Shown here piece after piece: positions 1,009-7,689 of a stretch of DNA of 22,590 nucleotides. The notes below the pieces were generated by a model, which saw only the letters and a program-made list of their open reading frames with translations, did not search any database and was not told the origin of the DNA. Source of the stretch: a virus (taxonomy: Duplodnaviria; Heunggongvirae; Uroviricota; Caudoviricetes); IMG/VR virus record IMGVR_UViG_2585427750_000023, positions 1 through 22,590 of that record. One strand, given 5' to 3'. Position 1 is the stretch's first letter. Each line of letters opens with the position of its first letter. The translations under genes and the position numbers were made by a program.

Positions 1009-1083
1009 GTCCTCTTAGTTAAATGGATATAACGAGCCCCTCCTAAGGGCTAATTGCAGGTTCGATTCCTGCAGGGGACACCA
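1009..1083 (+). tRNA. argW: tRNA-Arg (anticodon CCU), integration target of the prophage
   Basis: 75-nt cloverleaf read by hand: acceptor stem GTCCTCT/AGGGGAC (one G-U), anticodon stem AGCCC/GGGCT with loop CTCCTAA (anticodon CCT), T-arm GCAGG-TTCGATT-CCTGC, discriminator A plus encoded CCA; candidate -10 TATACT at 992..997. Confidence 0.93.
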
Positions 1084-1244
1084 TTTATCAGTTCGCTCCC
1101 ATCCGTACCAGTCCGCAAAATCCCCTGAATATCAAGCCTTCCGTAGATTCACAGTTCGTAATGGTTCGCGTCAGATCGTTGACAGCCGCACTCCATGACG
1201 GGTAAAAAGTGGATAAAATAATTTTACCCACCGGATTTTTACCC

Positions 1245-2402
1245 ATGCTCACCGTTAAGCAGATTGAAGCAGCAAAGCCGAAAGAAAAACCATACCGCCT
1301 ACTCGATGGTAATGGCCTGTACCTTTATGTCCCTGTGTCAGGGAAAAAGGTATGGCAGCTTCGCTACAAGATTGACGGTAAGGAGAAAATCCTGACCGTA
1401 GGAAAATATCCGCTAATGACTTTGCAGGAGGCAAGGGATAAAGCATGGACTGCGAGGAAAGACATCTCGGTTGGCATCGATCCGGTAAAAGCGAAAAAGG
1501 CTTCGTCTAACAACAATTCCTTTAGTGCGATTTACAAGGAATGGTACGAGCACAAGAAGCAAGTCTGGTCAGTAGGCTATGCAACTGAACTTGCAAAAAT
1601 GTTTGATGACGACATTTTACCTATCATCGGCGGCCTTGAAATTCAGGATATTGAGCCGATGCAACTGCTGGAAGTAATCCGCAGATTTGAAGATCGCGGC
1701 GCAATGGAGCGAGCCAACAAAGCACGCAGAAGATGCGGCGAGGTTTTCCGTTACGCTATTGTCACTGGTAGGGCTAAATATAACCCGGCACCTGACCTTG
1801 CAGACGCCATGAAAGGATACCGCAAGAAGAACTTCCCGTTTCTTCCTGCAGACCAGATCCCGGCATTCAACAAAGCACTGGCAACATTTTCAGGAAGCAT
1901 CGTATCGCTCATTGCGACCAAAGTTTTACGCTACACAGCCCTAAGAACGAAAGAGCTTCGTTCCATGCAATGGAAGAACGTCGATTTTGAAAACAGGATT
2001 ATCACTATCGACGCCAGTGTGATGAAGGGACGCAAAATTCATGTGGTTCCTATGTCAGACCAGGTGGTTGAACTTCTCACTACGCTAAGCTCAATCACCA
2101 AACCAGTATCAGAGTTTGTTTTTGCCGGACGCAACGATAAGAAGAAGCCAATCTGCGAGAACGCGGTGCTACTTGTGATTAAACAAATCGGCTATGAGGG
2201 TCTGGAAAGCGGTCACGGATTCAGGCATGAATTCAGCACGATTATGAACGAGCACGAATGGCCTGCTGACGCTATTGAAGTGCAACTTGCACATGCCAAC
2301 GGCGGATCTGTGCGCGGGATTTACAACCATGCTCAGTATCTAGATAAGCGCAGAGAAATGATGCAGTGGTGGGCGGAATGGCTTGATGGGAAGGTGGAGT
2401 GA
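1245..2402 (+). CDS. intS: Prophage tyrosine integrase (P4/CPS-53 IntS-like, N-terminal DUF4102-type arm-binding domain)
   Basis: 385-aa ORF from ATG 1245 (MLTVKQIEAAKPKEKPYRLLDG...), recognised as IntS-type integrase; directly downstream of argW in the same orientation. The ORF-track start at 1209 is a GTG extension and is not preferred. Confidence 0.88.
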   Translation: MLTVKQIEAAKPKEKPYRLLDGNGLYLYVPVSGKKVWQLRYKIDGKEKILTVGKYPLMTLQEARDKAWTARKDISVGIDPVKAKKASSNNNSFSAIYKEWYEHKKQVWSVGYATELAKMFDDDILPIIGGLEIQDIEPMQLLEVIRRFEDRGAMERANKARRRCGEVFRYAIVTGRAKYNPAPDLADAMKGYRKKNFPFLPADQIPAFNKALATFSGSIVSLIATKVLRYTALRTKELRSMQWKNVDFENRIITIDASVMKGRKIHVVPMSDQVVELLTTLSSITKPVSEFVFAGRNDKKKPICENAVLLVIKQIGYEGLESGHGFRHEFSTIMNEHEWPADAIEVQLAHANGGSVRGIYNHAQYLDKRREMMQWWAEWLDGKVE

Positions 2403-2581
2403 TCCACCTTAACTACTATCTAAGAGCACAAAGCCTTGCAATCCAGTGCAAAGCTTTGTGTGTCTCAGTTTTGTCTGCCATCACATGGAGATAATTAACC
2501 TATAACGCACATAGATGGTTGATGTTAATAAAAGCGCTGATCATCTCCTTAAGAGTATTTTAAGAGCATTTGAGTTATTAG

Positions 2582-2609
2582 CATGGAGGCGTATTGCCTC
2601 CATGTTTTT
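2582..2609 (+). terminator. Intrinsic terminator in the int-tailspike spacer (stem CATGGAGGC / GCCTCCATG, loop GTATT, then TTTTT on + strand)
   Basis: Perfect 9-bp inverted repeat 2582..2590 / 2596..2604 followed by T5 at 2605..2609; A-run on the other side, so it may act weakly in the tailspike direction too. Confidence 0.6.
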
Positions 2610-2610
2610 A

Positions 2611-4848
2611 CTACCATGTCGCATCTATGTAGAACGTTGGAGATGTAGTGGTGGACCCTTCAATCGATATTTGTCCTGTTGAAGCATTAATGGTGGCCAT
2701 TGCCATGCCAAATGAAACGCCATCAGCAGTGAACGGTACAGGGACATTTTTGGTTACTTTTGGTCTGCACCACCTCGGAAGCGTTAGAACAGTATTGCCA
2801 TTCGCAAATGAAGTGGCTGCCAGTTCAATATTAATTGAATTGGCAGTTAAACTTGACGGTGCCTGTACTGTTACGTTTGTTCCAGCCCACCATTGAACAG
2901 CTGCTCTTGGCGTGTAATCAACACGCGACCACCAGTCGATAATGGCAGAGCAGATAATTTCCGCATACAGACGATACCCTAACTGGCTTTGGTGAATGTC
3001 ATCACGCAGAAGTGGGTCGTATTGCGTGTTGAAATACTCTGGATATGGGGCCGGGAGCTGGTGAGTTGTTGTTACACAAATGACGTTATTGCCATATTTC
3101 ATCATCTGGCGTTTACCAGCTTCTCGCAACTCTGCGACACCGTCGTAGTTAGAAGATGGCTGGCCAGCCCCTCCAATAAATGACTGGCTATACCACATCC
3201 ACGGCTCAACCCAAACAGGGATACGACCAAGGCCATTGCAATATAAGACAAACTCATCTATCAATGACGCCATATAATCGCCGTTTTGGTTTGCCTGCCC
3301 TTCGTTAGTTCCGGCAACCATAATAACGATGTAAGCATCACCCGGCCCCTGAGCCTTCAGGAGATCTAACTGTTGCCTCATTGTCTGTCCGGCAACTGCC
3401 TTGTTTACAATGCTATGTGAACGGTGGCCGTTCGCTCCATCCATTAATTGCGGAATGTACGAGCTGAACGCGGAAATGAAATCCTCAGCTGTACTATCAC
3501 CGTGGATAAGGATATTAAGTGGAGGCTTACCGTGCACGCCATTATCAGAGGTGTAGCTGCATAATCCAGTTACACGCGCAGCACCTCCAGATGCCGTGGT
3601 CAGTGCAACAAACCCAACTTCGTATACATCCCCTACATCAGCAGTATCAAAGGGCAAACGTATCCCAACGCCATTCATCGTTATCTGCGCCCAGTTTTTA
3701 CCTTGCAGTGATACGCCAACGGTTGCTTTGCCCGGGGCGTACGACAGTAAACCTCCTGGCAGCGGGAATGGAGTTCCTTCTGCTACTGGACCACCAATTG
3801 GTTTCTGTCTATAAGACCACTGTGTAGCACCTGGTGCCCCATAGAACATCATCCAACCACCAGAGCATCGCAGAACAATCCCAACTTCTGAGGCGGCCTG
3901 AGATTCCATACGAATATGTGCAGAAATATGCTCTCCAATATCTATTGGTGCGAACAGGCCTGTTGTACGGTCAGTAGTTAAGGGGAAGATAGCTGCGCTA
4001 TCTGAGGATATGGTGACTTCACCTTCATAGAAGAACGTGTCACCATTTATGGAATAAACTTTACAATCTGACCATTCCACTCGCTTCATGCGAATAGGGT
4101 TTCGGTTGAGGATGGCCTGCTTAGCCAGATAATCCACTTCTCCACCGGTTGCTTTAAAGTTCAGGTGCGTAAATTCAAACGTACCCTCCCCCTCGTACTG
4201 CAACGATTTAAACAGTGAGTACAGATCACTGTCGAATCTCAGGGTGACATTTTTATCAATGATTACTTTACTGTTCGCAAGGAAAGAAGCGTTAGCAGCT
4301 GTAGACGGTACGGTGTACACCATCTGATTTTTTGAATGATTAGAGAAGTAAACATACCCGTAGGTCGCAACACTATCGCGCCACGCCTGGACTACGTTAG
4401 AATTATCATAACTTGGAATTTTTGTGATCGACTGCAAAACAAGATCTTCCTGTGAGATAGCTCCGTTTACCAGATTAACACCTCCTTGAGATGCAAGATC
4501 TTGCCTGAGTTGGTCAGGGTCATACTTCAGCACATTCGAAAAATAGAACTGCTGCGCACCATACGCATCATAAACAGCCATAGAATGGCCTTGCACGGTT
4601 ACGAATTTGGCAATCTGTCCGTTATATACCGGATATCCAGCAGCGTTAATGATGATTGGTTGCGAAACAGGAACGTGAGAACCATCTTCGTTCTCTACAT
4701 AAACCTGAATCTGGTTTTCAGTATTTACCGGGTCAGTGTCAATTTTACCGATATAAATTTTGCCATTGGCTACGGCTTTAAAAGAACGCGCCATAGTGAA
4801 GAGTTGCGAAGGCATCGATACGATCACATTGGCTGTAATGTCTGTCAT
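2611..4848 (-). CDS. Tailspike protein: P22-family head-binding N-terminal domain fused to a divergent receptor-binding region containing an SGNH/GDSL-hydrolase (esterase) motif set
   Basis: 745 aa; N-terminus [11 protein letters not shown]...[20 protein letters not shown]...[13 protein letters not shown] matches the conserved P22 gp9 head-binding domain; further downstream [11 protein letters not shown] (aa 447-455), GTNE (513-516) and DDIH (616-619) match SGNH blocks I, III and V; RBS GGAG 8 nt upstream of ATG. Confidence 0.85.
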
Positions 4849-4948: not shown

Positions 4949-5827
4949 TCAGTAGTTATGTACTGAAGGAGGTAATTCTTTATTCTTAAGTCTCATCCAT
5001 GCGGAAAGATTCGTTGGTCCGTCTGGCTCATTAATATCAACATCTCGTGTGTGGTTTATTAAAACGTCTCTCGCCATTCCGATAACATACGAGAATTCAT
5101 GACCGTAGTCGTAGCATCTTCCGGAATAGTTCGATTGAATTTGTTTTAATGCCGGATACAGTTCGCGGAATAATGCCTGTGAACGGTTAGCATAATCCCA
5201 TAGCCATACAAGGCTGTTTGCTTCTTTTGCAGAAAGCTCGTTTGCTTTCTTCTCTTGTTTGCCGATAAACTCGCCTTCAAGCACTACCCTGTGGATGTAC
5301 TCTACGGCCAGCGGGATTTGTTCAATTGAAAGTTCATCAATGCTGTCAATACCAAAACGCTGATGAACCATATTGTATGCATCGTCATAGCGAAGTCCTT
5401 TCTTTCCTACCAGCATGTTTACTGCATCGCGTAGCGGCGTTCTTTCCTCAACAGTGGTTTTCTTGCCTTTCACATACTCGCCATGTTTGCGAATTGAAGG
5501 TAGAACTTCTGCTGTTACCCACTTGCGGAATTTGTGCGGGACCGAACCTTTATTGACAGCATCGCGGCAGCGCAGAACCAATGTATACATACCTGATTCG
5601 CTCACAATGCTTAGATTCTGCTCACCACCAAGGGTGTAACTTAAAGTTACTCCCTTTTCATCGTCATCAAGTGCAGTAAGCGCCTTGCGTGAGTTAGTCA
5701 GGGTTAAAGCATCACAAACATCTTTTGCTACAAACCACGGCTCACCGCATTTGTTGATGACGAGGATTTCACTGTCGCCGAATTTGAAGATGGTGAAATC
5801 GTTTTGTGCCTTTGCTATACTTTTCAT
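4949..5827 (-). CDS. ant: Antirepressor Ant (Bro-N domain N-terminus, P22 Ant-like)
   Basis: Bro-N signature [28 protein letters not shown] at the N-terminus; preferred start ATG at 5827 with AGGA 9 nt upstream; the ORF-track extension to 5893 begins with TTG and is less likely. Confidence 0.8.
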
Positions 5828-5895
5828 GTCAATATTTCCTAATCCGATTTGTTGATACCGAAGCCCTGACTGTTCCCGCAGTTGGGGCTTCAACT
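5828..5895 (+). ncRNA. Candidate sar-like antisense RNA covering the ant ribosome-binding site (hypothesis)
   Basis: Extended -10 TGcTATACT on + strand at 5813..5821 predicts a start near 5828 directly opposite the ant start; an 11-bp hairpin at 5862..5889 is fully paired only on the + strand transcript (two G-U pairs that become mismatches on the mRNA strand); predicted length about 68 nt. Confidence 0.3.
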
Positions 5896-6093
5896 TTCTG
5901 CTCTATCAGTTATATCTTTCCCTTCATATACTTCACCTATATTGCTAATGCTGGCAGAACATCCAAGATGCTTGTATCTTATGATGTCCAACACGCAGTC
6001 ACTACACAGCATCCGACCTGTTTCTTTAGAGTAAATGTATGTTTGATCAGCGTCTGATTCGCTAATGCCGCAGAAACAACATTCTTTACTCAT
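5890..6093 (-). CDS. Hypothetical small zinc-ribbon-like protein (two CxxC pairs) encoded between arc and ant
   Basis: 67-aa [12 protein letters not shown]...RMLCSDCV with Cys pairs about 21 residues apart; SD GAGGGG 8 nt upstream; start ATG overlaps arc stop in an ATGA. Confidence 0.6.
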
Positions 6094-6230
6094 ACCGTTA
6101 TCCCCTCTCTCTTCAGGCTGTCCATCACCCGTTTAATTACTTCTGCACTAAATGAGCGACACTCCTCCTTTGCTTTTTCTTCAAGAATTTTTTCTAGCTT
6201 CTCTGGCATACGCAGTGTTTTAACCTTCAT
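6090..6230 (-). CDS. arc: Arc-like ribbon-helix-helix transcriptional repressor (below the ORF-track size cutoff)
   Basis: Hand-translated 46-aa [49 protein letters not shown], resembling P22 Arc (..FNLRWPREV..NGRSVNSEIYQRVMESFKKEG..); SD GGAGG 5 nt upstream of ATG at 6230. Confidence 0.75.
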   Translation of the reverse strand: MKVKTLRMPEKLEKILEEKAKEECRSFSAEVIKRVMDSLKREGITV

Positions 6231-6242
6231 TGTATCCTCCGT

Positions 6243-6317
6243 TGTATGTGGTACGCATACATAGTATTTAGGTACGCATTGATAGTCAATAGATACCTAC
6301 ATATCCTGTGGTAAAAA
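6243..6317. promoter_or_regulatory. Divergent immI control region: Pant-like promoter (minus strand -35 TTGACT 6284..6289, 17-bp spacer, -10 TACTAT 6261..6266), Pmnt-like extended -10 (TGgTAAAAA 6309..6317, + strand), and two operator-like dyads
   Basis: Dyad 1 TGTATG-N7-CATACA at 6243..6261 over the predicted Pant start; dyad 2 AGGTA-cgc-ATTGA-tag-TCAAT-aga-TACCT at 6270..6298 over the Pant -35; 9-bp direct repeat GGTACGCAT at 6250 and 6271. Confidence 0.55.
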
Positions 6318-6335
6318 ATTATTCAGGATGCGCCG

Positions 6336-6584
6336 ATGTCTGATCGTAAGTACAAAAACCCTCAAGTGAATCTGAGGCTTCCTGTAGAGATAAAGGAACG
6401 TCTTATTGAACTGGCTGAGGCTAATTCTCGTTCATTAAATGCTGAGATGGTCGCGGCACTTGAAGCGTGGACCGAAAAAAATAAACACATTCAAGCACTA
6501 GACCTTGCAACTATAGCATCACGATTGATAGATCTTGAACACGATGTTGAGACGCTAAAGACCATGTATGGTAAGGATAAATAA
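6336..6584 (+). CDS. mnt: Mnt-like ribbon-helix-helix repressor
   Basis: 82 aa; N-terminal RHH motif NLRLPVEIKERLIELAEANSRSLNAEMV similar to P22 Mnt/Arc; C-terminal helical tail; AGGA RBS; divergent from arc. Confidence 0.85.
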   Translation: MSDRKYKNPQVNLRLPVEIKERLIELAEANSRSLNAEMVAALEAWTEKNKHIQALDLATIASRLIDLEHDVETLKTMYGKDK

Positions 6585-6586
6585 AT

Positions 6587-6865
6587 ATGACAGATACCAA
6601 AGTGAACTTCAGAGAAACCATCTTCAAGGACTCAAGTGATGCTGTAAATGAGTATGCTGATGGATTTGCTTACTCGTCTTTTGGGGATGTCGGAGCAAGA
6701 TTTGGTTCAATAGCATTTTTTAAGCATGTTTCAGACTGGGTTAATAATGAGGAGATTCAGCCAGTTAGATACCAAATTGCCAACATTCGCATGAGTGAAA
6801 ATCAACTTCTTGAACTGGCTAAGTATATAGTTTCTCAACACGAAGAATCAAAAAAATTAAGCTGA
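6587..6865 (+). CDS. Hypothetical protein, first gene downstream of mnt (start 2 nt after mnt stop)
   Basis: 92-aa ORF with AAGGA upstream inside the mnt 3' end; no recognisable motif. Confidence 0.55.
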   Translation: MTDTKVNFRETIFKDSSDAVNEYADGFAYSSFGDVGARFGSIAFFKHVSDWVNNEEIQPVRYQIANIRMSENQLLELAKYIVSQHEESKKLS

Positions 6866-6872
6866 CAGAGCC

Positions 6873-7433
6873 ATGATTTCTTTCCCTGCCGTAAATGCTG
6901 ATCATGCAGCGGAGAAAAAGAGAACTCTTGGTCGTATGGGGTCGACAGGTGGCATAGGAGAAAAGTCCAATGCTTCGCCTCCAGTTACCAAGAATGATAT
7001 AACCAAAAACAATAATATCGCTTATCTTGGAAAACAATACACTGAGGAGCATGCTATGGGCAGCCCATCAAGAGAAGAGATTGACGCGAAGCTTGGTCAA
7101 AACAAAGCAGAAATTGAGTTAATATCTGCTAACATGCGCGCTGAAATTTCAGCTTTCAGAGAATTCCAATCTAAGCAATTTACAGCTATGAATCAGTCCC
7201 TTAATGAAATTAAGGGACAGATATTCGCTAGCAATGGCGAAGTTGCAGGGCTCAAAGGTCAAATTGATGGCATTAAAACATCCATGACCGCGACCCAATG
7301 GCTCGTTGGTGCGGTTCTCGCTATGCTTGCGGTAATCATAACGCTTCCGCAGATTCAATCTTACTTCAAGGTTTCTGAGCCGACTGCGAAGGAAGCCGCT
7401 AGTGAAACCCATGATACCAAAATAAAGCAGTGA
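6873..7433 (+). CDS. Hypothetical coiled-coil protein with a single C-terminal transmembrane anchor; alternative start at 7056 (125 aa) with SD GAGGAG
   Basis: Heptad-like region EIDAKLGQNKAEIELISANMRAEISAFREFQ..., then hydrophobic helix WLVGAVLAMLAVIITLPQI; the 6873 start has a weak RBS, the internal ATG at 7056 has GAGGAG 6 nt upstream. Confidence 0.5.
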   Translation: MISFPAVNADHAAEKKRTLGRMGSTGGIGEKSNASPPVTKNDITKNNNIAYLGKQYTEEHAMGSPSREEIDAKLGQNKAEIELISANMRAEISAFREFQSKQFTAMNQSLNEIKGQIFASNGEVAGLKGQIDGIKTSMTATQWLVGAVLAMLAVIITLPQIQSYFKVSEPTAKEAASETHDTKIKQ

Positions 7434-7461
7434 TCTTACCAATAAAACCTGGGAGGACAAC

Positions 7462-7689
7462 ATGAAGCAATGGCTCATCATAATTGCTGTTTTTTTGCTC
7501 ATTTACACTGTTTTCCCAACATTAAAAGCACCAATGCAAATAATTTCACTAGCAATAATTGCGATTGGTGCTTTCATTGCTGTAGCCGTACTTGTGTTTA
7601 AGGTTTTAAAGTTTTTAGTTTGGCTATCAAAAGATGATGGATGCAAAGTTCATCAAGAAAAAGAAGGCAAAATAACCAAAGTTGACTAA
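7462..7689 (+). CDS. Hypothetical small membrane protein (two predicted TM helices)
   Basis: 75-aa ORF with strong RBS GGGAGG 6 nt upstream; two hydrophobic segments (about aa 5-22 and 26-52); stop overlaps the convergent gp16 stop. Confidence 0.6.
   Translation: MKQWLIIIAVFLLIYTVFPTLKAPMQIISLAIIAIGAFIAVAVLVFKVLKFLVWLSKDDGCKVHQEKEGKITKVD

Follow-up and report, generated by a model that had tools for sequence, protein, structure and literature searches.

A very probable sar antisense RNA opposite the antirepressor gene of a P22-like Escherichia coli prophage

The interval 5828-5896 (+) of the viral DNA analysed here, a stretch of 22,590 nucleotides that we call the window, very probably encodes the sar RNA of the mnt-arc-ant immunity-I region of a P22-like prophage inserted at argW in E. 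coli. An earlier note on this DNA had proposed a sar-like antisense RNA opposite the ant start codon and ribosome-binding site (RBS), and the proposal is borne out by a full-length match to the Rfam sar family (RF00262), located at the same position as the sar annotated in P22 and epsilon34. This match, at 5829-5895 (+), covers positions 1-68 of the 68 positions of the model and reaches 71.6 bits, 28 bits over the curated gathering score of 43, with an E value of 2.2e-13 for the 22,590-nt window; in the comparison of the window with all Rfam families, two matches exceeded the gathering score, one tRNA and sar. The element lies on the strand opposite the ant leader and its RBS, its predicted promoter, Psar, is placed by alignment within the first ant codons with a start adjoining the ant start codon, and it folds into two stem-loops, of which the 5' one carries an anti-Shine-Dalgarno sequence in its loop and the 3' one is the G+C-rich terminator hairpin of the family. 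The sar of the window is an ordinary member of a family that is already known: it has a curated description and was characterised by experiment in P22. The features of the region are collected in Table 1.

Table 1. Features of the sar-ant region and of its neighbourhood (window coordinates).
Feature	Positions	Strand	Basis
ant, antirepressor, target gene, 292 aa	4949..5827	-	Pfam Bro-N + P22_AR_C; phrog_245 "anti-repressor Ant"
GTGAAA, weak -35-like hexamer of Psar (17-nt spacing to the -10)	5793..5798	+	promoter scan
Psar extended -10 TGCTATACT, inside ant codons 2-5	5813..5821	+	sequence, promoter scan, P22/epsilon34 alignment
Predicted sar RNA, 68-69 nt	5828..5896	+	start G5828 and end 5895/5896 placed by P22 homology
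Stem-loop I: 7-bp stem (5828-5834 with 5850-5856), 15-nt loop	5828..5856	+	folding
Stem-loop II, sar terminator hairpin: 14 bp, three G-U pairs, loop UCCC (5874-5877)	5860..5891	+	folding
Post-hairpin tail AACUUU, weak U tract	5892..5897	+	identical to P22
67-aa ORF (ORF67) between arc and ant	5890..6093	-	phrog_7150, function unknown, E 3e-50
arc-like ribbon-helix-helix repressor, 46 aa, opening the ant operon	6090..6230	-	Pfam Arc PF03869, E 2.9e-9
Candidate Pant TTGACT-17-TACTAT, for arc, ORF67 and ant	6261..6289	-	promoter scan; role inferred from position only
mnt-like ribbon-helix-helix repressor, 82 aa, divergent from arc	6336..6584	+	Pfam Arc domain, E 3e-10

The window covers an E. 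coli prophage at its argW end, with yfdC, tRNA-Arg(CCT), intS and a tailspike gene, beyond which long ORFs of the - strand are ordered as the late genes of P22-like phages. In the region 1009-4848, tRNA-Arg(CCT) (argW) is followed by the integrase gene intS (1209-2402, +), which directly adjoins the tailspike gene (2611-4848, -), and no O-antigen modification genes are present between integrase and tailspike. The N-terminus of the tailspike is of the P22 head-binding type; for its C-terminal part, a GDSL/SGNH-like match was obtained that is weak and stays below threshold. The divergent arrangement of mnt and arc is common to P22, epsilon34 and CUS-3. Between these two genes (6231-6335) we observed a direct repeat of 21 nt (6250-6270, 6271-6291; each copy begins with GGTACGCAT), an 18-nt inverted repeat (6265-6282 and 6286-6303) and overlapping promoter-like sites at 6289..6261 (-) and 6279..6307 (+); these may represent Pant, Pmnt and the operators of Arc and Mnt. 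Downstream of mnt, the 'ant moron' contains small ORFs, one for a 92-aa protein (6587-6865, +; phrog_4231, function unknown) and, at 6873-7689 (+), two others of 186 aa and 75 aa, the latter hydrophobic.

The ant gene begins at the ATG at 5827-5825 (-), which reads CAT at 5825-5827 on the + strand, and its Shine-Dalgarno sequence AGGAAA (5840-5835, -) is situated 7 nt upstream of this codon, so placed that its complement falls in loop I of the predicted RNA. The same start is used by RefSeq and in CUS-3, and ant likewise starts at an ATG in P22 and epsilon34. The gene directly upstream of ant is not arc but ORF67, whose stop codon TGA (5892-5890) lies within the sar hairpin. At the corresponding position, a hypothetical gene of 222 nt is annotated in the arc-ant slot of Emek and 611R6. 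ORF67 carries two CxxC motifs and is absent from the annotation of RefSeq NZ_CP024240; it matched no Pfam family and its PDB matches, RING-finger-like, were non-significant, leaving its assignment as a ClpX-type zinc finger unsupported.

The extended -10 element that had been read on the + strand is present exactly at the proposed position, and a sigma-70 scan finds it in the context GTGAAA-17-TATACT with the TG extension at 5793-5821 (+); P22 has GTGTTA in the place of GTGAAA, at equal spacing. In the records of P22-pbi and epsilon34, the arc-ant interval is annotated with Psar, sar and the sar terminator, and sar starts at or beside the base that follows the ant start codon. The arrangement TTGCTATACT-N6-G of the window aligns exactly onto this annotated Psar and +1, the latter falling on G5828. 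By homology, sar would start at G5828, the base adjoining the ant start codon, and end at 5895/5896, in agreement with the start near 5828 and the length of about 68 nt that had been expected. Two points count against the sar reading at this level, the weak -35 of Psar and the ordinariness of the -10 motif taken alone: the window has a single occurrence of the 9-mer TGNTATACT, and 29 of 100 shuffled windows yield at least one match, so that the motif by itself is not beyond chance, unlike the whole sar element, whose Rfam E value over the window is significant. Among the relatives, 15 of the 17 types of ant-side flank described below have a TGn-TAnnnT element at constant spacing to the ant start codon, the other two having the hexamer only, and the TGn -10 is kept inside ant genes that otherwise differ. 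This conservation could partly stem from that of the Ant N-terminus (M-K/N-S-I-A). Convergent transcription from Pant affects Psar, a point of which our argument makes no use.

In the ViennaRNA fold of 5829-5897, positions 5860-5873 pair with 5878-5891 to form stem II, and the anti-Shine-Dalgarno sequence UUUCCU (5835-5840) sits in the loop of stem-loop I. The arms of the 11-bp hairpin that had been described at 5862..5889, AGCCCTGACTG (5862-5872) and CAGTTGGGGCT (5879-5889), lie where they had been placed, yet the helix extends beyond them to the 14 bp of 5860-5891, and the wobbles, of which two had been counted, are present but number three. The statement that the hairpin is fully paired only on the + strand holds. 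For the 69-mer of the + strand, the folding energy is -28.2 kcal/mol (z -6.55), which none of 200 shuffles equals, whereas its complement on the - strand reaches -18.3 kcal/mol (z -1.8) and shows an internal loop at the positions where the wobbles become C-A mismatches.

The caution previously expressed on termination, that the tract following the hairpin is only moderately U-rich, was fair: the hairpin was not called as a terminator in our scan, the tail AACTTTCT having too few T. The failure of AACUUUCU to satisfy the consensus T-run rule is also to be counted against the sar reading. The doubt is eased, not removed, because stem II and the first six bases of the tail (AACUUU) are identical to those of P22, in whose record (P22-pbi) the hairpin is annotated as t-sar. 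Several relatives in the sar alignment have better U tracts than the window. By homology with P22, the transcript would end after stem II.

The conservation of the two stems was assessed on different sets of relatives. For stem II, five distant relatives were compared, namely the window, SPN3UB, a Klebsiella phage and the Edwardsiella phages GF-2 and Edno5. In this set, 98.6% of the cells of stem II are paired and four pairs are changed on both sides; shifting the partners by 1-3 columns lowers the pairing of the whole structure from 95% to 31-51%. G-U pairs fill 16 of the 70 stem-II cells (23%) and are mismatched as C-A on the ant mRNA strand. The structure is thus under selection, since distant relatives alter the sequence of the stem yet retain its pairing. 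Stem-loop I was out of register in the MAFFT alignments (20 and 9 sar variants), from which RNAalifold recovered stem II only; for stem I we therefore turned to alignment-free folding, in which the 5' domains from 120 viral contigs carrying the hairpin were each folded singly; the invariance of stem II in these contigs is the product of the exact search pattern and was not counted as evidence of conservation. All 33 distinct 5' domains, 30 to 34 nt long, form a stem anchored at their first base, with at least 10 different helix sequences, and each folds more stably than its own reverse complement. Most of them, that of the window included, present an anti-Shine-Dalgarno sequence of the UUCCU/CUCC type in or beside the terminal loop.

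The comparison with P22 is close. In both phages, sar faces the ant leader and RBS on the opposite strand, starts beside the ant start codon from a promoter whose extended -10, TTGCTATACT, is situated inside ant codons 2-5, and consists of 68-69 nt forming two stem-loops. The linker, the 3' hairpin and the tail, ACCGAAGCCCUGACUGUU..GC.GUUGGGGCUUCAACUUU, are identical except at loop positions, and the alignment shows the same agreement, again loop positions excepted, over the segment ACCGAAGCCCTGACTGTT..GC.GTTGGGGCTTCAACTTT. Stem-loop I is different, GUCAAUA/UGUUGAU in the window against GUUGGU/ACUGAC in P22 with a loop 1 nt shorter in the window, since the ant leader that it mirrors is not the same. 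The gene that ends at the sar terminator is ORF67 in the window and arc in P22, and the Ant of the window, unlike that of P22, carries Bro-N at its N-terminus; against the Rfam model, the window scores 71.6 bits and P22 96. None of the differences in stem-loop I sequence, ORF67 or Bro-N touches a defining feature of the sar family.

At the homologous spot, RF00262 also matches epsilon34 (95.6 bits) and nine further phage loci, among them those of CUS-3 (84.6 bits), Kapi1 (72.4 bits), N7, 611R6, phiv205-1, S.Kent, Emek and SPN3UB. Kapi1, EC.P3 and PhiR12 are 98% identical to the window over 5790-5900, while CUS-3 has the same ORF67-side flank as the window with a different stem-loop I; Kapi1, unlike the window, has arc directly upstream, and its ant is annotated from a TTG that overlaps sar. 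The segment 5780-5900 is 100% identical in five complete E. coli genomes and finds a match in 648 of 5426 (about 12%). The sar RNA is unannotated in the records of Kapi1, EC.P3, PhiR12 and CUS-3 and in the RefSeq E. coli genome inspected, and it goes unmentioned in the papers on Kapi1, the nearest phage.

Further away, sar-like elements were observed in the Klebsiella phage ST101-KPC2phi6.1 (L011, 1220-1285), where the 38.6 bits obtained fall short of the Rfam gathering score, and in the Edwardsiella phages GF-2 and Edno5 (L006 and L010, about 1240-1310), in which Rfam gave no match at E<0.01. The Klebsiella and Edwardsiella elements share the TGn -10, a hairpin that shows compensatory changes and the start adjoining CAT. 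The sar family probably extends past the Rfam threshold.

Other readings of the interval have to be weighed against that of a sar RNA. The hairpin could act on the - strand, as an attenuator, a terminator or a stabiliser in the arc-ORF67-ant mRNA, the + strand RNA being irrelevant; it is located between ORF67 and ant, it overlaps the ORF67 stop codon, and its complement is still able to form an interrupted helix. On that strand, however, the fold is much weaker and carries C-A mismatches in place of the wobbles, the G-U pairs of the relatives allow pairing on the + strand only, no U tract follows the helix (GGUAUCAACAAAUC), and the conserved TGn -10 of the + strand, at its fixed distance, is left unexplained. 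We consider this reading highly improbable, and its terminator or attenuator form was rejected for the weakness of the fold and the missing U tract. The same interval might be coding, as an N-terminal extension of Ant beginning at the TTG at 5893, in which case promoter and hairpin would be incidental. An ORF of 314 aa, mechanically called, does span 4949-5893, and the Kapi1 record has an anti-repressor gene of 945 nt running across the region (L005 660-1604; window 5828-5893), but the upstream frame is not conserved: it meets a stop 15 codons upstream in P22 and 4 codons upstream in the variant L119, while the frame of CUS-3 is another one, closed by a stop 21 codons upstream, and the length of the 5' domain varies as reported above. 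Moreover, the annotated starts of P22, epsilon34, CUS-3 and RefSeq and the Shine-Dalgarno sequence 7 nt upstream all designate the ATG. With the frame interrupted or shifted in relatives, the extension was rejected and deserves hardly any credence; the TTG start of Kapi1, which carries the coding sequence through the whole sar element, is probably a mis-called start codon.

A different kind of objection arises from the mosaic nature of the 3' part of the element. Its linker, hairpin and tail (5857-5897), a module of about 40 nt, are invariant in sequence across P22-like phages with unrelated ant and upstream genes, and this one hairpin joins 17 types of ant-side flank and 23 of far-side flank, with 46 combinations at 128 loci, a set (including L014-L133) that was gathered with the exact hairpin pattern and is hence biased. 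The ant-side flank type of the window is itself combined with six different upstream-gene ends, and the mosaic joint agrees with the label "boundary sequence" given to the region in the CUS-3 record. These invariant 40 nt could mainly be a recombination joint for exchanges of ant and arc, the RNA surviving here as a relic with no regulatory role. Such a view is difficult to reconcile with distant relatives that change the stem sequence and keep its pairing, or with the joint conservation of promoter, +1 spacing and anti-Shine-Dalgarno loop; a recombination joint is compatible with an antisense function and does not replace it, and as a substitute for this function we judge it very nearly untenable. 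With the sar RNA retained as the preferred reading, the 3' module may nevertheless exceed termination: although we regard it as rather unlikely, it could be a preferred crossover point for antirepressor modules, and it could also allow the sar of a resident prophage to pair with the heterologous ant leader of an incoming phage, which would amount to a cross-phage control of antirepressor expression. The P22 sar and the ant leader of the window have only these 3' 40 nt in common.

The function of sar is known for P22 only, where the RNA base-pairs to the ant mRNA leader, masking the RBS and so preventing the translation of Ant (PMC7968456); the primary papers are those of Liao et al. 1987, Wu et al. 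1987 and Schaefer and McClure 1997, as they are cited in PMC2629481, which also annotates sar in epsilon34. During P22 infection, sar has been detected by small-RNA sequencing (PMC13397905). By analogy, we infer that sar is transcribed in the prophage of the window and represses ant. In the mechanism that we propose, a sigma-70 promoter with an extended -10 in the first ant codons would fire on the opposite strand to yield, from G5828, an RNA of 68-69 nt fully complementary to the 68 nt situated just upstream of the ant start codon, a perfect complementarity that follows from encoding in cis. The 5' stem-loop would display the anti-Shine-Dalgarno sequence UUUCCU in its loop, and the 14-bp G+C-rich 3' hairpin would terminate the transcript and probably stabilise it. 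Pairing with the arc-ORF67-ant mRNA would cover the ribosome-binding site of ant and block the translation of Ant, and would in this way limit how much antirepressor is made after the ant promoter has been at work.

Such an RNA has counterparts in the OOP RNA of lambda, directed against cII, and in the sas RNA of P22, which are, like sar, short and highly structured RNAs of the opposite strand ending at an intrinsic terminator hairpin and exerting a secondary control on a developmental regulator, without similarity to sar in sequence or model. Their modes of action are distinct: OOP promotes mRNA decay, sas regulates alternative translation and sar occludes the RBS of ant (reviews PMC5415839, PMC13397905).

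In conclusion, the sar of the window brings nothing new with regard to mechanism, and its significance is mainly for annotation. With about 12% of complete E. coli genomes matching, control of the antirepressor by sar is probably common among the P22-like prophages of this species.
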